64,000 bases of DNA from Bacteroidota bacterium (GTDB lineage Bacteria > Bacteroidota > Bacteroidia > NS11-12g > UBA955): contig JAZKEQ010000030.1 in assembly GCA_040386935.1 (NCBI GenBank), forward strand, positions 600 through 64,599. Reading direction: 5' to 3'. The position numbers and the translations under genes are program-made. This document shows, piece after piece, positions 4,157-57,664 of this stretch. The notes under the pieces are model-generated. The model did not search any database. It saw nothing but the letters and a program-made list of their open reading frames with translations, and was not told the origin of the DNA. The first letter of the stretch is position 1. Each line of letters begins with the position of its first letter.

Positions 4157-5689
4157 ATGCCATTCGAAACAGAACTTAAAGTATTGCCTGCCATCGCTTT
4201 TGATGCGGTTAAAATTCAGGAACAATTTCTCAAACAATTTCCCGACACCGATTTACAACAGTTAGAAATTATTAAGCGCTCAATTGACGCAAGAAAGAAA
4301 CCCATTCTTTATGTTCTGAAATTAAGGGTTTGGCTGAAGGGTGATACAATCACCAAGGAAGTTAAACAGTTTACATTTTCTAATCAGCAGGTGAAACGCG
4401 TAGCGGTGATAGGTTTCGGTCCTGCGGGAATATTTGCCGCTTTTCAATTATTGGAGAAAGGGTATTTACCTATAGTGATAGAAAGAGGAAAAGCTGTTAA
4501 AGAACGCAGAAGAGACCTTGCAGCATTGAATAAAGAATTGCTGGTAAACCCTGATAGTAACTATTGTTTTGGTGAAGGCGGAGCCGGTACTTACAGCGAT
4601 GGTAAATTATATACCCGCAGTAAAAAAAGAGGTGATGTAGAAAAAGTACTGCAAACATTTGTGCAATACGGAGCCAATGAGGATATATTGGTAAATGCCC
4701 ATCCTCATATCGGTACCAATAAATTGCCCGGTATTATTGAAAATATGCGGGAAGCCATTCTGGCTGCCGGAGGACAGATTCATTTCAATACAAAATTGAC
4801 AGATTTTGTAACAGAAAAAGGAAGGATACAGCGCATTATTTGCAACAATGATTTGGAAATACATGTGGATGCTGTGATACTGGCCACAGGTCATTCTGCC
4901 AGAGATATTTTTCATTTATTGAACGATAAGAAATTAACAATAGAAGCAAAACCTTTTGCCATGGGTGTAAGAATAGAACACTCACAGGAATTGATAGACC
5001 GCATTCAATACAAACAAAATAAAAGAGACGACAATTTACCACCTGCAGCTTATAGTATAGTGACACAATCTGAAGGATGCGGAGTGTTTTCTTTTTGTAT
5101 GTGCCCGGGAGGCATTATTGCACCTGCCGCTACATCTATAAATGAAACAGTGGTTAATGGCTGGAGCCCAAGTAAGCGTAATGGCTTGTTTGCCAACAGC
5201 GGTTTTGTTGTTACAGTAGATCCTCAGCGCTGGCAGTCAACCATGGGTAATCATCCTTTGGCAGCCCTTGAGTTTCAACAGTTGTATGAACAAAAAGCCT
5301 ATAACGCAACAGGAAGTATCATTGCACCGGCACAACGCGTAGAAGATTTTATTATGGGACGTGTGTCATCTTCATTGCCCGATTGTTCTTATTTGCCCGG
5401 CATTAAAAGTGTAGACATGCGCAATATTTTACCCGGATTTATTACCACTGCCATGCGCGGGGCGTTGGTACACTTTGGTAAAACCATGCAAGGCTATCGC
5501 AGCAATGAGGCTTTATTAGTAGGTATTGAAAGTCGTACGTCTTCACCTGTGCGCATTCCACGCGATAAGGAAACATTACAACATCCTGATATTAGCAATC
5601 TTTTTCCATGCGGAGAGGGAGCAGGATATGCAGGTGGTATTGTAAGTGCCGCATTAGATGGCATGGCCTGTGCCAATGCTATTCAATAA
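4157..5689 (+). CDS. FAD-dependent oxidoreductase (uncharacterised dehydrogenase family)
   Basis: 510 aa. It has a dinucleotide-binding motif VAVIGFGPAGIFAA and a C-terminal GEGAGYAGGI motif. Confidence 0.8.
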   Translation: MPFETELKVLPAIAFDAVKIQEQFLKQFPDTDLQQLEIIKRSIDARKKPILYVLKLRVWLKGDTITKEVKQFTFSNQQVKRVAVIGFGPAGIFAAFQLLEKGYLPIVIERGKAVKERRRDLAALNKELLVNPDSNYCFGEGGAGTYSDGKLYTRSKKRGDVEKVLQTFVQYGANEDILVNAHPHIGTNKLPGIIENMREAILAAGGQIHFNTKLTDFVTEKGRIQRIICNNDLEIHVDAVILATGHSARDIFHLLNDKKLTIEAKPFAMGVRIEHSQELIDRIQYKQNKRDDNLPPAAYSIVTQSEGCGVFSFCMCPGGIIAPAATSINETVVNGWSPSKRNGLFANSGFVVTVDPQRWQSTMGNHPLAALEFQQLYEQKAYNATGSIIAPAQRVEDFIMGRVSSSLPDCSYLPGIKSVDMRNILPGFITTAMRGALVHFGKTMQGYRSNEALLVGIESRTSSPVRIPRDKETLQHPDISNLFPCGEGAGYAGGIVSAALDGMACANAIQ

Positions 5690-5712
5690 AAGTTTACCTT
5701 TGCCACACTCTT

Positions 5713-7032
5713 ATGAAAAACATTGTTTTGTTTGGGGCGGGGCGCAGCAGTATCTATCTGGTAGAGTATCTGCAGGCATGGTGTGTGAAAAACAATTACA
5801 TGCTGATAATTGGCGACAAGGATGTACAATATGTACAAGATAACGTCAAAGAAAAAGACAATTTACAGTTTCAAACCATTGATATTTTCGATCACGAAAA
5901 GGTAGAGGCATTGATAAAAATCAGTGAACTGGTTATTTCATTATTACCTGCTGCATTGCACATGCACATTGCCCATTTGTGTCTCGACAATCATAAGCAC
6001 ATGGCTACTGCTTCTTATGTATCAGATGAGATGAAAGCCATTCACGATGATGCGATAAATAAAGGACTGATATTTTTAAATGAATGCGGATTGGATCCGG
6101 GCATCGACCATATGAGTGCCATGCAATTGATGGACAACATCAAAAGCAAGGGCGGTATTATTAATAGTTTCGAAAGTTATTGTGGCGGATTGGTCGCCAA
6201 TGCCTGTGATGGAGACAATCCATGGAAGTACAAATTTTCATGGAACCCTCGCAATGTGGTAGTAGCAGGTCAAGGTGCACCTGCACAGTTTTTATTGGAT
6301 GGACAATTAAAGGTATTGCCTTACCATCAATTATTCGCTTACACCAAAGACTTTACAATTGGCAATCACGGTACATTCGAGGCTTACCCAAACAGAGATT
6401 CACTGAAATACCGACCATTGTATGGCTTGGATCATATAGCCACCATGGTAAGGGGCACCTTTCGCAAACAAGGCTATGCTTCGGCCTGGCAAGTACTGGT
6501 AGTGCTTGGTTTAACTGATGATACAACTAAATTGTATTACCCTCAGGGAACCACTATGCAGCAATGGCTGACGACTTATATGGTACATCCTTATCAGGAT
6601 TTAAAAAATGCGGTGAAAACAGCGACCCATTGTACAGATGCGGATATTGCTAAACTGGAATGGTTAGGATTATTTGGCAATGAGGTGTTACCTTTATATG
6701 AAGGTACATCGGCACAAATACTGGAAGAGATATTGAAAATAAAATGGCTGTTATTGCCCAACGACCGCGATATGGTGGTGATGCTGCATAAAATAGGGTA
6801 TCAATTGAATGGAGAAAATAAAGCGGCCACTTCAACTCTGGTAATAGAAGGGGAGAGCAACACACATACAGCCATGGCAAAAACTGTGGGACTGCCTTTG
6901 GCCATAGCCTGCCGACTGATATTGGAAAATAAAATCAGTCAACGCGGTGTAGTTGTACCTGTCGATTGCGAGCTGTACACACCGGTTTTAGAGGAATTGA
7001 AGGGATTTGGGATACATTTCATTGAAAATTAG
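5713..7032 (+). CDS. saccharopine dehydrogenase family protein
   Basis: I start it at the ATG at 5713 (MKNIVLFGAGRSS Rossmann motif). The track ORF from 5608 overlaps the upstream gene and adds a Cys/Arg-rich nonsense extension. LNECGLDPGIDHM is typical of the family. Confidence 0.85.
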   Translation: MKNIVLFGAGRSSIYLVEYLQAWCVKNNYMLIIGDKDVQYVQDNVKEKDNLQFQTIDIFDHEKVEALIKISELVISLLPAALHMHIAHLCLDNHKHMATASYVSDEMKAIHDDAINKGLIFLNECGLDPGIDHMSAMQLMDNIKSKGGIINSFESYCGGLVANACDGDNPWKYKFSWNPRNVVVAGQGAPAQFLLDGQLKVLPYHQLFAYTKDFTIGNHGTFEAYPNRDSLKYRPLYGLDHIATMVRGTFRKQGYASAWQVLVVLGLTDDTTKLYYPQGTTMQQWLTTYMVHPYQDLKNAVKTATHCTDADIAKLEWLGLFGNEVLPLYEGTSAQILEEILKIKWLLLPNDRDMVVMLHKIGYQLNGENKAATSTLVIEGESNTHTAMAKTVGLPLAIACRLILENKISQRGVVVPVDCELYTPVLEELKGFGIHFIEN

Positions 7033-19964: not shown

Positions 19965-20936
19965 TTATTTAGACCCTATTTTTGATATGCCATTTTTGGA
20001 TAATATTTCATTGATTATATCATTTTTTCTGTCACTATAGTCATATACAATCCGAGCTTTTTTTAGATTTTTCATCTCTTCAAAAATCTCAAATTTTTCC
20101 GGTTCTAATTTTTTTATTTGGTAGGCTATAAAGCTACTTAAGTTTTTTGCAGTTTTTAAATTCTCAATATTCTCTAACTTATTCAGCACATCAATAAAGA
20201 TGCTTTTCAGTGACAAGCATTTACTAAAATTAGGGAGGCATTTTAATTTAGAAAGCATAATTATACTTAAATGTTCTATGGAAGTGAGATCACTAACAAA
20301 ATGTATGTTTTCAATTGATCTTAAAGCGGATAATTCAAGCCTTTTTAATTTATTAAGTTTTGTAAGCTTTGACAAGTCTTTTATACCACCATACCCTAAA
20401 CTAAGGTCTTTTAAATTTGGAAGTTGAATTAAAACATCTAATTGGTTTTCTTTAATAGATGAAACATAAAGGTTTTCAACGGTTGATATTTTTGCAATTT
20501 TTTCAAAATCATTGAATTTTGCACTAGTATAGAGGCTAACTAGGTGGTTTAATTCTAAAAGTGGGGTTAATGATAATTTAGGGTTATTTGATGAAAATGA
20601 AAGAGATTTTAAATTATTGAGATAGCGGATATTGTTTAAGTTTTCTGCTATATTAAAATCCAATGTTAAATGTTCTAAATTGTCCAAGTATTTAAGAAAA
20701 CTCAAGTCTGACCAACTACCATCGTTGAAAAAAGTAAAGAGTCTTAATTTGATATTTGGCTTTAATTTGAAGAGTTTTTCATTTAATTTTTTGAAAGCAG
20801 AGTCATGAGGTTGTTTCTCAAACTGTATATCCTCAAGCTCTGTATTCTGACAAAGCCATTCAATGTTATCATCTGTAATATTAGGGTACAGGTGAAGTGA
20901 TTTTTTATTCAGTAAATAATCCTTTGTGTTTTCCAA
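19965..20936 (-). CDS. leucine-rich-repeat protein without a signal peptide
   Basis: It contains repeated LxxLxLxxN/L modules (NLEHLTLDF, NLKSLSFSS, NLKDLSLGY, KLKRLELSA, SIEHLSII, SLKSIFID). Confidence 0.7.
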   Translation of the reverse strand: MENTKDYLLNKKSLHLYPNITDDNIEWLCQNTELEDIQFEKQPHDSAFKKLNEKLFKLKPNIKLRLFTFFNDGSWSDLSFLKYLDNLEHLTLDFNIAENLNNIRYLNNLKSLSFSSNNPKLSLTPLLELNHLVSLYTSAKFNDFEKIAKISTVENLYVSSIKENQLDVLIQLPNLKDLSLGYGGIKDLSKLTKLNKLKRLELSALRSIENIHFVSDLTSIEHLSIIMLSKLKCLPNFSKCLSLKSIFIDVLNKLENIENLKTAKNLSSFIAYQIKKLEPEKFEIFEEMKNLKKARIVYDYSDRKNDIINEILSKNGISKIGSK

Positions 20937-50330: not shown

Positions 50331-50384
50331 TAGAATAATTGTGAATATAAATAGGGTTAAATGGTTGAATTTAAATTATATAAA

Positions 50385-52880
50385 ATGAAAAATCTATTAA
50401 CTTTATTTCTCCTAATAATTCCTATGAAATCTTTGGATGCACAAACAGTTGTTTCAACTGGGAATGTATCAGGAACGTGGACAAAAACCGGCAGCCCCTA
50501 TAAAGTTACTGGAGAGATAATTGTACAAAAAGGAAGTACACTAACAATCGAACCTGGTGCTGTAGTAGAGTTTCAAGGGGCCTATAGCCTAACAGTAGAT
50601 GGGCAGTTAAAAGCAATTGGCAAAAAGAATGATAGCATTACTTTTAAAGCAAGCCAAAGCATAATTTGGACAGGTATACTTTTTATAAGAAATACACAAA
50701 CAGATACTATTCGCTTTAATTATTGCAGATTTGAAAATGTAGGGCAGCAATGGAAAAGCTATAAAAACACTTTCCCTTATCTATGGCAAAAGAATAATGT
50801 AATGGTGAGTAAGGCTTTATTCTGTGTTTATTCTTCCCCTTTAGTTATTAAAAATTGCAGTTTCTATTTTAATCGACCCAGACTCAATCAAGCTAATCTA
50901 GTGTACGTTTTTGGTAATGTGTTAATTGCGGATAGTTTATACATAACAAGTTCTTCTGATACAATTTCTAGCAGTACTGGCATGATTCAGGTTGATTCAG
51001 CAAAATACTATTCAATAAAAAATATTAAAGCAAATTCCATAAAAGATTTTAATACATTAATTAGGGCTGCAGATTGTAATGGCATAATGAGTAATTTATC
51101 AATTATTGAGAATGTTACAGGAGATAAATGTCTGAAAACTCAATTTGTTGTCATACGCGACTCAGATATTGGAATAGTCAGAAATATTAATCTTTCAAAT
51201 GGTGGCAGGTTTGGCATAATATTGTCAGGAGCTACTAATTATCAAGTGAATAATTGCATTTTCAGAAAAGTATCAAATGCTATAGGGAGTAGTGGAACTT
51301 GTACAGGAAGTATTGTTAGTAATATTTTAATTGAAAAGTGTGGATTGTTTGGTGTCACACAGGCTACTTTTTTTCAAAGTTCTGGGTTACTAATTCGCGA
51401 TTCTAAATTTATTGATAATATCATTGGATTTGCAGTTACTCAGGAATTTGGAAATGGCACACCAATTTTTTTAAATTGCAATTTTCAGGGAAATAATGGA
51501 GCTGGCAGGATTGAGGCTTATCCGGTTTTTATAAATTGTAATTTTCAAGATAATTTTAGTTACAAAACATTACCTGAAGGAAATGGCCCCAATATTCCTT
51601 ATACTTCCGGTATTATAATTACAAGAGAGTTTTATAATTCTCGCCCCTATTTTTATAATTGTCTGTTTTGGGGGAATAAAGATAGTTTCGGACATGGTAA
51701 CAATAATATTATGTATGTAGATAAAATTGTTAAAGGTGATTTTACAAAATGTATTATACAAGGGGATAGTAGCGATGGAATTGTGGGGTATGATGAAAAT
51801 ACTTTTTCAGAGTTTTCTGTTCCTAAAGCCAATCTCACCTATAACAATAGTAACGGTCAAAATCCGGGTTTTATAGATTCAACAACCGGCAATTATCAAC
51901 TCCTCAATACCTGTAATAAAACAGCCTATGCAATCAATAAAGGAATGTCGGGCAATTTACTCATCCAGTATCCCTACAATATCCTCTTGTCTCAGTATGG
52001 AGTCAATATTTACAATACAACAGATTTGCTAGGCAACCCCCGCATAGCTGATGATACCATTGATATTGGTTGTTATGAGAGCATAGGTAATAAGAAAGTA
52101 CTTAAACTTAAAAATACTTATAATGATACGACAGTGTGTTATGGGGCAGGGGCTAATTATAATGTCAAAACAATGGGAGCAGTACAAAGTTACTTATGGC
52201 AACATAAATCAGGTTCAGCAGTCAGTACTGTTGCCTCAGGTTCATCACTCACACTAGTCAATCAGAAAAGCAAAGCCAATCAGTACCGGTTGATGGTTAG
52301 TAATAACGAGTGCTTGCCATTAAAGGATAGTAGCAGATGGTTTACCTTCAATGTCAATAATCCTGTAAAGAAAGGTATTACAAAGAATCCCAATAGAGAC
52401 AGTATCTACCAAAATGAAACGATGCAATTAACTACCAATGCCACAGGATATGCTAGCTTGCTATGGAATACCGGAAGTACAGCTGCAGGTATTAGTTTTT
52501 TAGGGAGCAGTTTGGGAGCCGCAGGTAAGTATAGATTTAGTGTTGAAGGAAGAAAGACAACCGGATGTTTAGAAACGGATACGGTTTACATCATCACTAA
52601 ATCAGGCAATAGCAGTATTCAAACACCTTTTGCAAATTCTCAACTAACGATATATCCTCAACCTGCCACAGATATATTAAATATTTCAGGGTTTGATATA
52701 GAAGGAAAGACTCTTGTCATGCAGATTTACACCCTGGATGGTAAGTTACTCCTCACACAAGGTATCGAAACTAATGAAGTCGAAATAAATACTGCGCATT
52801 TACAACAAGGTATTTATTTAATGACAATTGCAGATCAGAGTACTGGTGAAATGATTGTAGTGAAATGGGTAAAAGGGTAG
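50385..52880 (+). CDS. secreted beta-helix-like protein with a T9SS C-terminal sorting domain
   Basis: It has the signal peptide MKNLLTLFLLIIPMKSLDAQ and repetitive N/G/I-rich segments. The C-terminal LTIYPQPATDILNI...GIYLMTI...VKWVKG is typical of a type A sorting domain. Confidence 0.75.
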   Translation: MKNLLTLFLLIIPMKSLDAQTVVSTGNVSGTWTKTGSPYKVTGEIIVQKGSTLTIEPGAVVEFQGAYSLTVDGQLKAIGKKNDSITFKASQSIIWTGILFIRNTQTDTIRFNYCRFENVGQQWKSYKNTFPYLWQKNNVMVSKALFCVYSSPLVIKNCSFYFNRPRLNQANLVYVFGNVLIADSLYITSSSDTISSSTGMIQVDSAKYYSIKNIKANSIKDFNTLIRAADCNGIMSNLSIIENVTGDKCLKTQFVVIRDSDIGIVRNINLSNGGRFGIILSGATNYQVNNCIFRKVSNAIGSSGTCTGSIVSNILIEKCGLFGVTQATFFQSSGLLIRDSKFIDNIIGFAVTQEFGNGTPIFLNCNFQGNNGAGRIEAYPVFINCNFQDNFSYKTLPEGNGPNIPYTSGIIITREFYNSRPYFYNCLFWGNKDSFGHGNNNIMYVDKIVKGDFTKCIIQGDSSDGIVGYDENTFSEFSVPKANLTYNNSNGQNPGFIDSTTGNYQLLNTCNKTAYAINKGMSGNLLIQYPYNILLSQYGVNIYNTTDLLGNPRIADDTIDIGCYESIGNKKVLKLKNTYNDTTVCYGAGANYNVKTMGAVQSYLWQHKSGSAVSTVASGSSLTLVNQKSKANQYRLMVSNNECLPLKDSSRWFTFNVNNPVKKGITKNPNRDSIYQNETMQLTTNATGYASLLWNTGSTAAGISFLGSSLGAAGKYRFSVEGRKTTGCLETDTVYIITKSGNSSIQTPFANSQLTIYPQPATDILNISGFDIEGKTLVMQIYTLDGKLLLTQGIETNEVEINTAHLQQGIYLMTIADQSTGEMIVVKWVKG

Positions 52881-52947
52881 TGGAGGTCTTGTTTATATTC
52901 AAGAGAATTCTTTTTCACTAATCCCTAAAATTGAGCACCGCAAATCA

Positions 52948-52966
52948 ATCCCAAAGGGTCGGGACT
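52948..52966. repeat. REP-like hairpin copy (opposite orientation)
   Basis: ATCCCAAAGGGTCGGGACT is the reverse complement of the AGTCCCGACCCTTTGGGAT type. Confidence 0.75.
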
Positions 52967-52994
52967 AAAATCCAAAATCTTAAAATCCCAAAAT

Positions 52995-53022
52995 CAAAAA
53001 TAAAAAGGGCCCTTTCGGGCCC
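52995..53022 (-). terminator. Rho-independent terminator for the minus-strand metal locus
   Basis: GGGCCC-TTTC-GGGCCC lies at 53007-53022. The minus strand reads GGGCCCGAAAGGGCCC followed by TTTTTATTTTT. Confidence 0.6.
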
Positions 53023-53091
53023 CCTTCCAGGATCTTCATATTTCGCTGTATGTTGGTCCTTTGGAAGTATCTTTATAATGTCTGTTTTCTA

Positions 53092-53110
53092 ATCCCGAAT
53101 GGTCGGGACT
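53092..53110. repeat. REP-like hairpin copy
   Basis: ATCCCGAATGGTCGGGACT has stems TCCCGA and TCGGGA. It is followed by the period-8 tract TAACCCAA/TAACCAAT/AACCTAAT at 53116-53147. Confidence 0.75.
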
Positions 53111-53141
53111 TGCAGTAACCCAATAACCAATAACCTAATAA

Positions 53142-54200
53142 CTATTCCCTAAACTTAGGATTATTCACAAATTCAAAATCGGTTAATGTATTAAGGAAAG
53201 CAATAATGTCCTGCACATCCATTGGATTCATGCGACCTTTTTGAGAGTTACCCAAATTAGGGTCGATGTTTTCAGCGTATTTAAAACCAATGTTGTAGTG
53301 CTGTATGCATTCTTCCAGTGTTTTAAATCTGCCATCGTGCATGTAGGGTGCTGTTAAGGCAATGTTGCGCAATGATGGAGTTTTAAATTTACCATCGTCA
53401 TTGTTGTTAAGTGTAATTAAACTGCGACCCTTGTCAACAGGAATACTGTCGAGGCCGGTGTTGCGGTATTCAAAATCGCTGAAGGTGCTGCCAATGACAT
53501 GGCAATGCCCACAGTCGCCTTTATTGATGTCAGTATACCATTGCAAACCTCTTTGTTCCTGAGGAGTAAAACTTGCTAATCCTTGTTTCACGCGATCGTA
53601 TTTGCTGTTGCCTGAAATTAAAGTGCGTTCGAATTGTGCAATGGCTTTCATCACCATTGGTGTTGTAATTTTATCGCCACCAAATACTTTCTTGAACAAT
53701 GCAGGATAATCTGCGTGTGCATTCAATTCACTCAGGGCATTTGTCAAACTCTCGTGCATTTCTACCGGATTTTGTATGGGTCCAATTACTTGTGATTCAA
53801 GATTAGCCGCACCACCATCCCAAAAGAATTGTTTCTGATAACCCAGATTTACAATCGGCATAGCATTGCGTGTGCCGGGCAGTTTATCGATGCCTATACT
53901 GAATTGAATGGTGCTGTCTGAAAACGAAAAGTTAGCTTTATGACATGAGCCACATGATTGCGTATTGTCGCCTGATAAAATAGGGTCATAAAACAATTGT
54001 TTACCCAATGCCACACCCTCAACAGTCATAGGATTGTCGGCAGGTATTACCATTGGTGGCAAGCCCGGAGGTATTACCAGTTCATAAGGTGTCAGTCCTT
54101 CTTCTGTTTTCAGGTCGTTGTCTTTCGCACAGCCAATAAAAATTATAATGGCACTTATGCATGCCATGATATACAATAATAACTGCTTCATATCTGACAA
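53142..54200 (-). CDS. di-heme cytochrome c peroxidase family protein (MbnH/MauG-like)
   Basis: It has two CxxCH motifs (CGSCH, CGHCH) and a signal/lipoprotein N-terminus. It lies 3 nt downstream of the MbnP-like gene. Confidence 0.85.
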   Translation of the reverse strand: MSDMKQLLLYIMACISAIIIFIGCAKDNDLKTEEGLTPYELVIPPGLPPMVIPADNPMTVEGVALGKQLFYDPILSGDNTQSCGSCHKANFSFSDSTIQFSIGIDKLPGTRNAMPIVNLGYQKQFFWDGGAANLESQVIGPIQNPVEMHESLTNALSELNAHADYPALFKKVFGGDKITTPMVMKAIAQFERTLISGNSKYDRVKQGLASFTPQEQRGLQWYTDINKGDCGHCHVIGSTFSDFEYRNTGLDSIPVDKGRSLITLNNNDDGKFKTPSLRNIALTAPYMHDGRFKTLEECIQHYNIGFKYAENIDPNLGNSQKGRMNPMDVQDIIAFLNTLTDFEFVNNPKFRE

Positions 54201-54203
54201 GTA

Positions 54204-54971
54204 TTACTGGATTTTGTCAAATATAAAAGCATCAGAAAAACTCAGCTTCAAATTGTCAATCCATGCAAAATCAGCACTGCTGCTCGACTGGCGGTTGTTG
54301 TCTACATTAAAATCAACATTAGTAGGCGTAGTGTATAAATTATTGAGGTTGAATTTTAAATGCAATTGTTTGGCAACGCCTTCAACTTTCAGTGAAGTAG
54401 TTAATGGTAACTCAACATCAGTTAGGGCTCTGTCAGTTGCAAAGTGAAAAGTCATTGATTTGGTAACACCTGAAGTATTTTTGTATTTGCCTTCGTGTTT
54501 GAAGAATACATAACCGGTGTTCCAGTCCCATATCATGCCCATTACCGGATCTAAGTCACCGTCTTGCGCACCATTGTGGTTGCGGTCGTAAGGTAAGCCA
54601 ACTTTAAATTTAATTTTTGTATAAGTGCCGTTTGGAACTTTTAACGCATCAACTTTGCAGGTACTGATATCGGCTGCGTTGATTAAATCGTAGTTGTCGA
54701 GTTTCAATTCTGTGTTGTCGTCTTTTACCAGTATCACATTGGTGATGTAGTATTTCAATAGGTCAACCTGATAGTTGTTGCCGGCAGCATTGGTGTATTG
54801 CATTTTGCCCAATTCAAGTGGCATGCCATCTACTTGATTGTTAAAAAGAATGCTAACATCAGCAGATGTTTCTGTATTGGTTGTAGCCGGTGGTGTTACT
54901 TCTTTGTCTTTGCAGGCAACAAGCATTACCATGGCAGTAAATGCCATTAAAGTTTGTTTGATTATTTTCAT
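54204..54971 (-). CDS. MbnP-family periplasmic protein (putative copper-binding partner of MbnH)
   Basis: It has the lipobox LVAC. FNNQVDGMPLELGKMQYTNAAGNNYQVDLLKYYITNVIL and MIWDWNTGYVFFKHEG match my recollection of the MbnP family. It pairs with a di-heme peroxidase. Confidence 0.7.
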   Translation of the reverse strand: MKIIKQTLMAFTAMVMLVACKDKEVTPPATTNTETSADVSILFNNQVDGMPLELGKMQYTNAAGNNYQVDLLKYYITNVILVKDDNTELKLDNYDLINAADISTCKVDALKVPNGTYTKIKFKVGLPYDRNHNGAQDGDLDPVMGMIWDWNTGYVFFKHEGKYKNTSGVTKSMTFHFATDRALTDVELPLTTSLKVEGVAKQLHLKFNLNNLYTTPTNVDFNVDNNRQSSSSADFAWIDNLKLSFSDAFIFDKIQ

Positions 54972-54992
54972 TTAATATATTGTAAAGGGTGT

Positions 54993-55037
54993 AAATAAAA
55001 AGTACGGATTCCCCACATTTATGAGGAGAATCCGTAC
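54993..55037 (-). terminator. Rho-independent terminator directly after the Cys-rich mini-protein gene
   Basis: GTACGGATTC (55002-55011) and GAATCCGTAC (55028-55037) form a perfect 10-bp inverted repeat. The minus strand continues TTTTTATTT. Confidence 0.6.
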
Positions 55038-55051
55038 AATTGTAAGATTAA

Positions 55052-55246
55052 TTATTTGCAGCAAGTGCAACCGCAATCGCAATTGTCGCCTGAGCAAGAA
55101 TTGTCGCAAGTACAAGCAGTTTCACATTTGTCAGTGCCGCAGCATGAGCCGTTGCATTTTGAAGATGAAGAACTGTTGATAGCGTAAAGTGCACCTGAAG
55201 TAGCAAGGACGGCTATAGAAGCCAATAAAATTATTTTCTTTTTCAT
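55052..55246 (-). CDS. secreted Cys-rich mini-protein (64 aa; 12 Cys in the last 35 residues)
   Basis: I start it at MKKKIILLASIAVLATSGALYA (ATG at 55246). The mature part is INSSSSSKCNGSCCGTDKCETACTCDNSCSGDNCDCGCTCCK. The longer track ORF adds a non-signal leader. Confidence 0.6.
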   Translation of the reverse strand: MKKKIILLASIAVLATSGALYAINSSSSSKCNGSCCGTDKCETACTCDNSCSGDNCDCGCTCCK

Positions 55247-55375
55247 GATATTTTTTGTTGTTAAAATTTGATTTTTGTGTTCAACATTTGAGCCTGTTGA
55301 GGGGCGTGTGTTTTCATAGTTCCGTTCACGGAATGAATTCATAAATAAATGGAATCACTTATTTACTACACGAAA

Positions 55376-55777
55376 TCAAATTTGCAGGACGCGTTTCTTC
55401 AACAAAATGGGGACGGGAAGCTCCCTCTGGTCGAAAGTATTGAAAGCCAAAACATCATCAACAGAATAGTTGAAAACGCTAGGCTGAATGAGATCGAATT
55501 TAATAGGTGCTTTTACTTGTTGTTTAGCAGAAAAAGCAATTGTTTTTTGTAAACCCAAAATAGGGTTAATCACTGTGCTAATAGATGAGGTATGGCAGCA
55601 TGAAGATTTATTTGGAATCTTTACACAGGCGCAGCACTCATCACTTACCTGAACACCGTTGTCTTTTAAACTAAGGCCTACACCTGAAAATACATCGCAG
55701 CACGTAGATACTTCTATCTTAATTCCGCTACCTGTGAGCAGAAAAATAACAGATAATATAATGGCTTTGATTTTCAT
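55376..55777 (-). CDS. secreted or membrane-anchored protein with three Cys-Cys motifs
   Basis: It has a signal/anchor segment and then STCCDVF, DECCACV and SSCCHT. It lies 16 nt downstream of the CDF gene. Confidence 0.55.
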   Translation of the reverse strand: MKIKAIILSVIFLLTGSGIKIEVSTCCDVFSGVGLSLKDNGVQVSDECCACVKIPNKSSCCHTSSISTVINPILGLQKTIAFSAKQQVKAPIKFDLIQPSVFNYSVDDVLAFNTFDQRELPVPILLKKRVLQI

Positions 55778-55793
55778 GGCACCAAATACAAAG

Positions 55794-56747
55794 TTAGTGA
55801 TTTTCTTCTGATTTGCAATTTTTGAACTCCATTTCTAATGTAGCATGATGAATATTAAGGGCATATAAATATTTCTTGAGCCTATCCTTTACTGCATCTG
55901 ATTGTTCTGAATTCATATTGTCTTTCATTAGTACATGGGCTGTTAATGCATTGCTGTTGCTGCTGATGGGCCATATATGGATGTGGTGAATGTCCACAAT
56001 ATTATCATCAATGGATTGTAATGCTTTGATATCTTTCATACTGATGTTTTCAGGCACCCCATCGAGGAACAAGCGCAATGTTGATTTTAAAAATCGCCAG
56101 GTGGACAGTAATAGAAATGCCATTACTAATAAGCTCACCAATGGGTCGAGCCAGTACATGCCGGTGTAATGCATGGCAATACCGGCCACAACAACACCTG
56201 CAGATATCAATGCATCGGCCAGTAAATGCAAATAAGCGCCTCTTACATTCACATCGTTTTTATTTTCTCTCATGAATAACCAGGCACTGAAACCATTGAT
56301 GAGTATCCCAATAAATGCGACCTTCGATACAGTAAATCCTTCGACAGCATGTGGATCCATTAAGCGAGTAATGGCAGAATAGCCAATACCGCCAACAGCG
56401 ATTGAAAGAATGATGGCATTCACCATGCCGGCCAGCACTGTGGCTTTGCTGAATCCGTAAGTAAAACGTTCGGTCGGTTTTACTTCTGCCAGTTTAAAAG
56501 CCAGCACAGATATCAGTAAACCTCCTACATCGCTGAGATTATGACCTGCATCAGATAGCAAGGCCAATGAATCAGTCATTAAACCCGCAACAGTTTCTAC
56601 AATTACAAAGCCGGCATTAAGTACAATACCTATAATAAAGGCACGGGTAATATTTTTTGATTGCAGTTGCCCATGACCGTGATGGTGGTGATGATCATGA
56701 GAATGATGATGGTCGTGCGAATGTTCGTGAATCATTACTTCAAACAT
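55794..56747 (-). CDS. cation diffusion facilitator (CzcD/ZitB-like) with a His-rich N-terminus
   Basis: It has HEHSHDHHHSHDHHHHHGHG, six TM helices, SDAGHNLSD and HLLADA motifs, and a C-terminal cytoplasmic domain. Confidence 0.9.
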   Translation of the reverse strand: MFEVMIHEHSHDHHHSHDHHHHHGHGQLQSKNITRAFIIGIVLNAGFVIVETVAGLMTDSLALLSDAGHNLSDVGGLLISVLAFKLAEVKPTERFTYGFSKATVLAGMVNAIILSIAVGGIGYSAITRLMDPHAVEGFTVSKVAFIGILINGFSAWLFMRENKNDVNVRGAYLHLLADALISAGVVVAGIAMHYTGMYWLDPLVSLLVMAFLLLSTWRFLKSTLRLFLDGVPENISMKDIKALQSIDDNIVDIHHIHIWPISSNSNALTAHVLMKDNMNSEQSDAVKDRLKKYLYALNIHHATLEMEFKNCKSEENH

Positions 56748-56794
56748 ACATTATTTTTTTTCAACTAAATTTGCATTCAATTGTTCTATAAGAA

Positions 56795-57664
56795 ATGAGT
56801 ACAGAAGTTAGGGTTGGAGGTGTTCCCGAACATTTTAATCTGCCGTGGAAACTGGCAAATGAATACGGGCTTTTTGAAAAAGATGATATTAATTTTCAAT
56901 GGCAGTTTTACAGTGCTGGCACCGGTGCTATGGTAAAAGCATTGGCTGACGATGAACTGGATATGGCAGTGTTGCTCACTGAAGGTGCTGTGTCGGCTAT
57001 TATTAAAGGATTAAAAGCGCGCATTGTTAAACAATACATTGCATCACCTTTGATATGGGGCATTCATACAGGTTGTGATTCGGGATTGGAAAATATCGGA
57101 CAATGCGAAGGAAAAAAATATGCCATCAGTCGCTTCGGTAGCGGCAGTCATTTAATGGCCATGATAGATGCAGAAATACGTGGCAAAAAAATTGAAGAAT
57201 CGGATTTTGTATTAATTGAAAATATGCAGGGCGCTTTACCTTCTTTGCAGAACAATCAGTCTCAGGTTTTTTTCTGGGAAAAGTATACCACCAAGCCACT
57301 GGTTGATAAAGGCATGTTGGAACGCATCGGTGAGTTTATAACACCGTGGAGTTGTTTTCAAATTGTGGCCACTGAAAAAGCATTGGCGACTAAACGCGGA
57401 GCCATTGAAAAAATATTGGCTTCTATGAATTTTATCTGCAAACAATTTATGAGGGCAGATAACAGCATCGATATGGTATTGGAACATTTTGAAATGAAAC
57501 CTGAAGATGCTCACTCATGGTTTTACAGTACAGAGTGGAATACGGATTATCACATCAGCGAAAAAATGCTGGAGAATGTGATGTATTCGCTAAAAAAAAT
57601 CGGCAATATCAGCAGTGAAGTGAAACCTGAAGTATTGGTTGACGAAGTGGTTGAGCTGGTTTAA
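56795..57664 (+). CDS. NMT1/THI5-like substrate-binding-fold protein (no signal peptide)
   Basis: VRVGGVPEHFNLPW...GTGAMVKAL resembles the periplasmic-binding-protein type 2 fold of NMT1/THI5-like proteins. The assignment is weak. Confidence 0.5.
   Translation: MSTEVRVGGVPEHFNLPWKLANEYGLFEKDDINFQWQFYSAGTGAMVKALADDELDMAVLLTEGAVSAIIKGLKARIVKQYIASPLIWGIHTGCDSGLENIGQCEGKKYAISRFGSGSHLMAMIDAEIRGKKIEESDFVLIENMQGALPSLQNNQSQVFFWEKYTTKPLVDKGMLERIGEFITPWSCFQIVATEKALATKRGAIEKILASMNFICKQFMRADNSIDMVLEHFEMKPEDAHSWFYSTEWNTDYHISEKMLENVMYSLKKIGNISSEVKPEVLVDEVVELV

Follow-up and report, generated by a model that had tools for sequence, protein, structure and literature searches.

The window analyzed here is a 64,000-nucleotide (nt) stretch of contig JAZKEQ010000030.1 from a Bacteroidota bacterium, and the subject of this work is a small gene of 64 codons at 55052-55246 on its reverse strand, hereafter the mini-gene, which encodes a cysteine-rich mini-protein. 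Reading along the same strand, the order is a gene for a CDF-family cation efflux transporter, a gene for an HYC_CC_PP (DUF8199) protein, a 129-nt gap, the mini-gene, a hairpin, the genes for an MbnP-like and an MbnH-like protein (together mbnPH) and a terminator.

The translation of the open reading frame (ORF) matched the one quoted in the first-pass annotation of this DNA. It opens with a signal peptide (MKKKIILLASIAVLATSGALYA, 55181-55246, reverse strand), with a cleavage site that was judged by eye and not by a predictor, and continues into a mature peptide of 42 amino acids with 12 cysteines (INSSSSSKCNGSCCGTDKCETACTCDNSCSGDNCDCGCTCCK, 55055-55180, reverse strand) up to a stop codon (55052-55054, also reverse strand). 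The cysteines lie at mature positions 9, 13, 14, 19, 23, 25, 29, 34, 36, 38, 40 and 41, where they form CC, CxC, CxxxC and CxxxxC spacings, and they account for 29% of all mature residues, or 35% of those in the 34-residue core. The mature peptide has a net charge of -2 and contains no aromatic residues, histidine, methionine or proline, and its cysteines are 0-33 residues from the C-terminus of the 64-amino-acid protein. No other ORF in the 64-kb window has more than eight cysteines at a density of at least 10%. Its mass below 10 kDa, its cysteine content within ~15-35%, its CC and CxC motifs and its lack of aromatic residues agree with the compositional part of an operational definition of a metallothionein, which would also ask for several metal ions bound in metal-thiolate clusters. 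A longer in-frame ORF of 96 amino acids, starting at 55342, was rejected since the extension was not conserved and the relatives begin at MKKK. In all family members the signal is laid out as MKKK, a hydrophobic stretch of 15-16 residues and a c-region of small residues, again as judged by eye. The mini-protein probably carries a Sec-type N-terminal export signal, from which export would follow.

A narrow family of cysteine-rich mini-proteins

The same ORF was recovered in more than 20 loci from uncultured Bacteroidota. Contigs reached via homologues of the adjacent MbnP always held it in the ~400-nt gap between DUF8199 and MbnP, and when one genome per species was scanned with a pattern, 12 loci came up, each of them belonging to uncultured Bacteroidota or to Chitinophagaceae-like metagenome-assembled genomes. 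A scan of metagenome contigs with the family pattern gave at least one new locus, and further loci were added by looking up two database members of the family. The ratio of nonsynonymous to synonymous substitutions (dN/dS) was 0.08-0.28 in 10 locus pairs, with synonymous change saturating. The mini-gene is real, conserved and under purifying selection, and the first-pass description of a small gene with a signal peptide and a metallothionein-like mature part of 12 cysteines was borne out, both by the ORF itself and by the selection acting on it in these loci. Alignments showed that the signal peptide is conserved along with a cysteine framework that reads C-x3-C-x-C-x3-C-x-G-x2-C-x-C-G-C-x-C-C-[KEQ], from which the sole departure is locus L020, where the first spacing is shorter. 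Family proteins are 62-71 amino acids long with an acidic mature part of 40-49 residues, and the peptide of L012 has a single tyrosine where the window peptide has none.

The family is taxonomically narrow and, judging by record titles, belongs to uncultured freshwater-type Bacteroidota. Five relatives of 64-70 amino acids with the same architecture came out when 1.84 billion cluster representatives were scanned exhaustively with HMMER, a word-indexed search among 5.8 billion proteins gave the window's own protein and no other, and tblastn of the mini-protein and its DUF8199 partner against plasmids gave no match. The family is largely absent from protein databases because gene callers miss the ORF or call the antisense strand. 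Public calls place a spurious antisense ORF of 48-82 amino acids over the mini-gene in L001 (4702-4950, reverse strand), L002 (4800-4946, reverse strand) and L005 (4716-4961, reverse strand), and the gap that holds the mini-gene was left uncalled in L004, L020 and L021. Small families that are missed or called on the wrong strand are thus under-counted, here to the point of five clusters among the representative proteins.

At E-values up to 10, neither the full protein nor the mature peptide matched a metallothionein family in Pfam, and the mature peptide matched no family of bufferins or other peptides synthesized ribosomally and modified post-translationally (RiPPs) in NCBIfam. The DUF2282 and BUF_6/12Cys-type models of NCBIfam and Pfam likewise gave no match to the mini-protein. 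Matches to lactococcin-972 (E = 0.02) and to Mycoplasma were confined to the signal peptide and were set aside, as was a chance match to an EGF module (E = 6) in a PDB search with the family profile. These apart, the peptide had no counterpart in Pfam, NCBIfam or the PDB. AlphaFold2 returned a predicted local distance difference test score (pLDDT) of 48.5 from the single sequence and 49.3 from a six-sequence alignment, and neither model showed secondary structure in the mature part. A literature search for exported bacterial metallothioneins found none, and no curated family, structure or paper was found that describes the mini-peptide or HYC_CC_PP/DUF8199.

Cysteine totals across the family are 12, 13 or 14. 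Most members have an even number (12 or 14), which together with the export signal would suit a secreted mini-protein rich in disulfides whose cysteines are structural and whose role is unrelated to metal, for instance that of a bacteriocin, toxin, signal or protease inhibitor. Knottin and conotoxin frameworks contain CC pairs as well, and the weak lactococcin-972 match, which covers the signal peptide only, points the same way. We nevertheless consider such a role unlikely, since members L004, L011, L018, P0124 and P0126 have 13 cysteines, ~35% cysteine without a hydrophobic or aromatic core is more than disulfide-rich folds typically have, and the peptide is acidic and not cationic. In addition, AlphaFold2 predicted no fold, there were no linked immunity or export genes, and the neighbors are metal-related. 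Because the number of cysteines varies and is sometimes odd, a plastic thiolate cluster fits better than a fixed disulfide framework; the odd counts, the cysteine density, the acidity and the lack of a predicted fold all favor metal-thiolate binding over a disulfide scaffold, and none of them is decisive.

The HYC_CC_PP partner and the flanking RNA structures

When the neighbors were mapped by tblastn of the window genes onto all loci, together with the called genes, the gene directly upstream of the mini-gene was HYC_CC_PP/DUF8199 wherever a locus had upstream sequence, the divergent L024-L026 among them. In the window, this obligate upstream partner encodes a protein of 133 amino acids (55376-55777, reverse strand; NF047658). 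The first-pass annotation had named MbnP/MbnH and CDF genes as neighbors and had not discussed this gene; HYC_CC_PP is the neighbor that stays constant. The NCBIfam model NF047658 matched all 15 members tested in alignment A4 (best E = 1.2e-9), with the window copy at 21.6 bits, under the curated cutoff of 28, and the HYC_CC_PP homologues carry a precomputed PF26622 assignment. The 15 partners in this alignment have an N-terminal export signal or anchor, a poorly conserved linker and three CC pairs, except for the L020 copy, which has only two, with CG at the middle site. The motif T[VQ]IN is retained in most copies. The C-terminus VPILLKKRVLQI is near-invariant and ends exactly at the stop, with the pattern [VI]P[ILV]L[IL]xKRxLxI directly before it. 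Fifteen copies fit the strict form of the C-terminal motif, and in these the last CC pair is 60-63 amino acids from the C-terminal proline, which is followed by exactly 10 residues.

The HYC_CC_PP partners gave no DUF2946 match or detectable homology, a PDB search with DUF8199 gave no match, a word-indexed search with the DUF8199 partner returned only three close matches, and a literature search on HYC_CC_PP/DUF8199 found no description. CutF and CruR (DUF2946) are exported proteins with a cysteine motif ~45 amino acids from a C-terminal arrest-like motif, and they act in cis via ribosome stalling (PMC9973294, PMC9426467). In Proteobacteria, DUF2946 regulators come first in metal operons, sometimes with MbnPH, and are followed by a long or structured intergenic region (PMC9426467, PMC9973294). 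By analogy, HYC_CC_PP may be a cis-acting nascent-chain metal sensor that controls expression of the peptide, as CutF and CruR do for their targets; the two are alike in architecture only, which makes this a lead and not a finding.

Between HYC_CC_PP and the mini-gene, the 129-nt intergenic leader (55247-55375, reverse strand) folds into three small hairpins (z = -2.9), which are followed by ~35 nt of unpaired A-rich sequence before the ATG of the mini-gene. Across loci the intergenic region spans 109-206 nt and was more structured than shuffled sequences in 9 of 12 (z from -2.2 to -4.8), with structure noted in the window and in L002, L004, L005, L011, L012, L014, L015 and L021. The region has three or four small hairpins, the first of them 6-9 nt past the upstream stop where this was checked, and then an A-rich stretch free of pairing ahead of the ATG; the hairpin positions are conserved, their sequences are not. 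Both the 129-nt gap and the near-palindrome at 55320-55333 that had been pointed out before are present, and the latter, an inverted repeat TTCCGT-N2-ACGGAA, turned out to be one of the leader hairpins, with a 5-bp stem and a UGAA loop. It did not hold up as a distinctive element, as its sequence is unconserved even in the closest relative, L001; for this reason, and with 6-bp repeats occurring alike in most intergenic regions, a role as an operator was rejected. Rfam gave no family match on 52900-57000, a sigma-70 promoter scan with a model unsuited to Bacteroidota showed no enrichment relative to shuffled sequence, and TAnnTTTG, the -7 motif of Bacteroidota, had a single match in the leaders.

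On the other side of the mini-gene, a hairpin of 13 outer and two inner pairs (55002-55037, reverse strand) is followed directly by the U-tract UUUUUAUUU (54993-55001, reverse strand) and was taken for an intrinsic terminator or an attenuator. At -23 kcal/mol (z = -5.0), its free energy was not equaled by any of 200 shuffles. A simple terminator scan did not report it, probably because the scan allows no interior mismatch and the 10-nt loop of the 13-bp stem exceeds its 3-8-nt limit. An equivalent hairpin of -15 to -23 kcal/mol follows the stop in 18 of 19 loci, starting 6-25 nt past it, so that the terminator already ascribed to the gene proved to be conserved across the family. Stems of different loci are unrelated in sequence; about half of the loci have a strong T-run behind the hairpin, and in several others the stem is flanked by A/T. 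The distance from the end of the hairpin to the MbnP ATG is 30 nt in the window and 18-36 nt where MbnP follows, with 68 nt in L011. A separate promoter for mbnPH has little room in a gap of 18-36 nt, and we infer that mbnPH is transcribed by read-through or from a promoter that overlaps the 3' end of the mini-gene. The earlier proposal that the peptide is made in excess over MbnPH fits this architecture of hairpin and short gap, which supports it but does not prove it.

A small ORF that ends 6-25 nt before a hairpin preceding copper genes could also be a cis-regulatory leader ORF, whose translation would set the hairpin and mbnPH expression through Cys-tRNA attenuation or CutF-like sensing, with the peptide as a by-product. 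There is precedent in CutF and CruR, exported cysteine-bearing upstream ORFs that regulate copper genes (PMC9973294, PMC9426467), and family members hardly differ in their C-terminus, CxCGCxCC[KE]. However, purifying selection acts over the whole peptide, signal peptide included, and L013-L015 keep both ORF and hairpin with no gene following on the same strand. At 62-71 amino acids, the cysteine region would still be in the ribosome or translocon at termination and could not sense periplasmic metal. The mini-protein also has no proline-rich arrest motif, and HYC_CC_PP fits the CutF/CruR layout much better. Thus, a purely regulatory role for the ORF appears very unlikely.

Metal genes and genomic context

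Downstream of the mini-gene, the window encodes an MbnP-like lipoprotein with putative kynurenine-dependent copper binding (54204-54971, reverse strand; Pfam PF20243, E = 7.5e-40) and an MbnH-like di-heme enzyme of the MauG/CCP family (53142-54200, reverse strand; TIGR04039, E = 1.5e-71; PF03150, E = 1.9e-58), which is presumed to be the maturase of the MbnP-like protein. The MbnP-like protein scored 51.9 bits against an NCBIfam equivalog cutoff of 140, and the MbnH-like protein was also under its cutoff. A terminator-like hairpin with 11 pairs, six of them G-C, and a T-run follows mbnH (53002-53027, reverse strand). In an alignment of 35 homologues (A3), the MbnP family has invariant C20 (the lipobox), H132, M146, W148-x-W150, H159 and H176, and because the lipobox cysteine is invariant, the Bacteroidota MbnP-like proteins are probably lipoproteins. 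PDB searches with the MbnP-like protein, as a single sequence and as the 35-sequence profile, gave no match. MbnH converts a tryptophan of the WxW motif of MbnP to kynurenine and thereby creates a copper site (PMC11951088).

MbnP-MbnH lies immediately 3' of the mini-gene in ~16 loci, in agreement with the linkage to metal genes that had been proposed. It is absent from L013-L015, where a convergent rho gene comes next, and from L024, where an SDR gene does, and the two MbnP loci without DUF8199 (L022 and L023) have no mini-ORF. The CDF gene (55794-56747, reverse strand; TIGR01297, E = 1.7e-70) was found upstream of DUF8199 only in the window, L001, L002 (the same contig as L007), L003, L008 and L010 and is a neighbor in the window's clade only. 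The first-pass annotation had suggested a search for homologous cysteine peptides beside MbnP/MbnH or CDF genes, and such peptides lay beside MbnPH in the ~16 loci but not in the four without them, nor beside CDF outside that clade. The CDF stop is 17 nt before the HYC_CC_PP gene, and co-transcription is therefore suggested in the window's clade. The N-terminus of the transporter is unusually rich in histidine (HEHSHDHHHSHDHHHHHGHG). It is flanked by genes for a Haem_bd protein (PF14376; 57661-58194, reverse strand) and an NMT1/PBP2-like binding protein (56795-57664, forward strand), both of which are syntenic in L001, L002 and L010.

The presence of the heme enzyme MbnH nearby in most loci raises the alternative that the mini-protein is a RiPP precursor, with the Sec signal as the leader and the cysteines converted to thiooxazoles or cross-links by MbnH or by an enzyme encoded elsewhere. 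A precursor gene followed by an attenuating hairpin is a typical layout of RiPP operons. Moreover, bufferins are periplasmic copper-binding RiPPs made from small cysteine-bearing precursors with a Sec signal (PMC11626156). However, none of the more than 20 loci has an adjacent gene for an MNIO/DUF692, DUF2063, radical-SAM or YcaO protein, and their flanks vary and hold no conserved enzyme gene. A scan of 20 window ORFs of 214-360 amino acids gave no MNIO/DUF692 or DUF2063 either; these ORFs encode housekeeping or unrelated proteins and one unannotated protein, and the NCBIfam search for RiPP and bufferin families was negative even at its permissive threshold. The known substrate of MbnH is the tryptophan of MbnP (PMC11951088), and since MbnP is already its substrate and the peptide has neither tryptophan nor tyrosine, MbnH is an unlikely modifier of the peptide. 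Furthermore, the peptide is still under purifying selection in the four loci without MbnPH (dN/dS of 0.08 for L013 versus L015). The modified-peptide metallophore that had been offered as an alternative thus finds no linked modifying enzyme in any locus and no residue on which a MauG-type enzyme would act, and we regard a RiPP precursor as quite improbable.

The block was found in at least five genome contexts (NMT1/CDF...SDR; CBS-Omp85...Rho; Omp85...GNAT; PurS/HI0933...RsfS; DEAD helicase...SDR). Because the contexts differ between loci, the block moves as a unit with HYC_CC_PP and the mini-gene as its core. An Omp85-family POTRA protein of ~461-528 amino acids, usually together with a CBS-domain protein and a DUF5723 protein, adjoins the block in L004, L005, L011, L012, L013-L016, L019 and L020, in L012 on the other side and on the opposite strand. 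This might reflect a functional link, for instance outer-membrane export, or a shared ancestry of the neighborhood. The three genes were rejected as obligatory partners because they are absent from the window and its clade.

In L020, an arsenic-resistance-type cluster (4498-6878, reverse strand) lies immediately downstream of, and convergent to, the HYC_CC_PP-mini-gene-MbnPH block, with genes for an ArsR-like HTH_5 protein, a DUF6428 protein, a GNAT protein, an LMWPc arsenate reductase-like protein and a MIP channel. Whatever probability the readings weighed in this text leave over falls to other functions of the peptide, such as a thiol redox buffer or metalloid binding, the latter in view of this single locus that abuts an ars operon. 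Elsewhere in the window, whose GC content is 38%, a 323-amino-acid ORF (19965-20936, reverse strand) had no Pfam match at E-values up to 1e-4, and an 839-amino-acid beta-helix protein with a C-terminal sorting domain of the type IX secretion system is encoded at 50361-52880 on the forward strand, which confirms that the window is of Bacteroidota origin.

Proposed role and comparison with known systems

We propose, with about equal chances of being right or wrong, that the mini-protein is exported by Sec, remains unmodified and binds metal through thiolates much as a metallothionein does. Copper is the most likely metal, in view of MbnPH and of the partner that resembles CutF/CruR. Metal binding by the peptide would be expected from its composition and its neighbors. 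The pre-protein would be exported by Sec after its translation, since 64 amino acids are too short for co-translational targeting, and would be cleaved after ...LYA. Removal of the signal would leave, outside the cytoplasm, an acidic peptide of 40-49 residues with 12-14 cysteines and no hydrophobic core, which may fold only around soft metal ions in a single metal-thiolate cluster, with Cu(I) as the likeliest metal and Zn or Cd as possible ones. Single metallothionein domains suggest, by analogy, a capacity of ~4 M(II) or 6-8 Cu(I). The peptide could then act as a periplasmic metal buffer or store and possibly exchange metal, as donor or acceptor, with the copper-binding lipoprotein MbnP. It is encoded in a mobile block of HYC_CC_PP, structured leader, mini-gene and hairpin, with mbnP and mbnH as optional additions. 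The hairpin and U-tract would end most transcripts, so that the peptide would be made in excess and MbnPH would rely on read-through, and the upstream HYC_CC_PP, as an analogue of the DUF2946 proteins CutF and CruR, would sense metal and control expression of the peptide.

Several points weigh against the proposal of an exported metal-thiolate peptide. The argument for metal binding draws on composition and neighbors only, and none of the Pfam metallothionein families resembles the peptide in sequence. Free thiols would tend to form disulfides in the oxidizing periplasm. Four loci have no MbnPH and most have no transporter at all, and because of these absences the link to metal leans largely on MbnPH and the putative role of HYC_CC_PP. 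The signal peptide was judged by eye and not scored by a predictor, and the lack of a predicted fold is weak evidence because AlphaFold2 was given one sequence or a very shallow alignment. Finally, the U-tract is poor in L004, L010, L018 and L021, with two or three T in the 8 nt past the stem, and the hairpin may stabilize the mRNA instead of ending transcription.

Should metal binding hold, the peptide would be a bacterial metallothionein that is exported and unmodified, which would be unusual. Thiolate-cluster buffering, so far treated as cytoplasmic (SmtA and MymT) or as dependent on enzymatic modification (bufferins) or on a large folded scaffold (Csp1), would then extend to the periplasm, and both HYC_CC_PP/DUF8199 and, outside methanobactin operons, MbnP/MbnH would gain a concrete partner. 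The arrangement also suggests a testable regulatory model for HYC_CC_PP/DUF8199. A more speculative extension, which we consider unlikely as a whole, is a Bacteroidota circuit in which an arrest-type HYC_CC_PP sensor and its leader control an exported unmodified metallothionein, which buffers Cu(I) for MbnP or hands it over. Such a circuit would be a self-contained extracytoplasmic copper system of an undescribed kind, with the first known Sec-exported unmodified bacterial metallothionein. The mini-peptide is short enough for synthesis or expression and thus cheaply testable.

Compared to known systems, HYC_CC_PP resembles the DUF2946 proteins CutF, CruR, CopL and CzcI in its export signal, its CC motifs, a fixed spacing and the hairpin-rich leader that follows. 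It differs in ending with the C-terminus described above and not with RAPP or another proline-rich motif, in a spacing of ~62 versus ~45 amino acids and in having no homology to them. The mini-protein itself is unlike the DUF2946 sensors, being too short and having no arrest-like proline motif. As a short gene for a cysteine-containing peptide near MbnP/MbnH it is like the gene for the methanobactin precursor MbnA, but MbnA has a non-Sec leader and needs MbnB (an MNIO) and MbnC, neither of which is present here, and the core sequences are unrelated. Csp1, like the mini-peptide as proposed here, is an exported cysteine-rich store that holds Cu(I) as thiolates; it is a Tat-exported four-helix bundle of ~120 amino acids that forms a tetramer, whereas the mini-peptide has 42 amino acids, a Sec-type signal and no predicted helices.

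The mini-peptide shares with metallothioneins (SmtA/BmtA, MymT, PmtA and the fungal copper metallothioneins) its small size, a cysteine content of ~30% and the CC, CxC and CxxxC spacings. It also shares the lack of aromatic residues, of a hydrophobic core and of a predicted metal-free fold, and a number of cysteines equal to that of a single cluster domain. Unlike them, it has a Sec-type signal and so would act outside the cytoplasm, shows no similarity to their Pfam families, lacks the histidine ligands of SmtA and stands in an HYC_CC_PP/MbnPH context. With the bufferins BufA1 (DUF2282) and BufA2 (BUF_6/12Cys) it has in common a Sec signal and a small size and would share cysteine-dependent chemistry and a periplasmic location, along with a proposed role in copper buffering. 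Bufferins are periplasmic copper-binding RiPPs that are modified by an MNIO, with adjacent genes for the MNIO (DUF692) and a DUF2063 protein, and have longer folded cores (PMC11626156). A bufferin core has 60-70 folded residues with 4-6 (or 12) cysteines, compared to ~35 residues with 12-14 cysteines and no predicted fold in the mini-peptide, which is not a bufferin because those need an MNIO and DUF2063 and have the longer folded cores. The mini-peptide would work in the manner of both a metallothionein and a bufferin while belonging to neither family.

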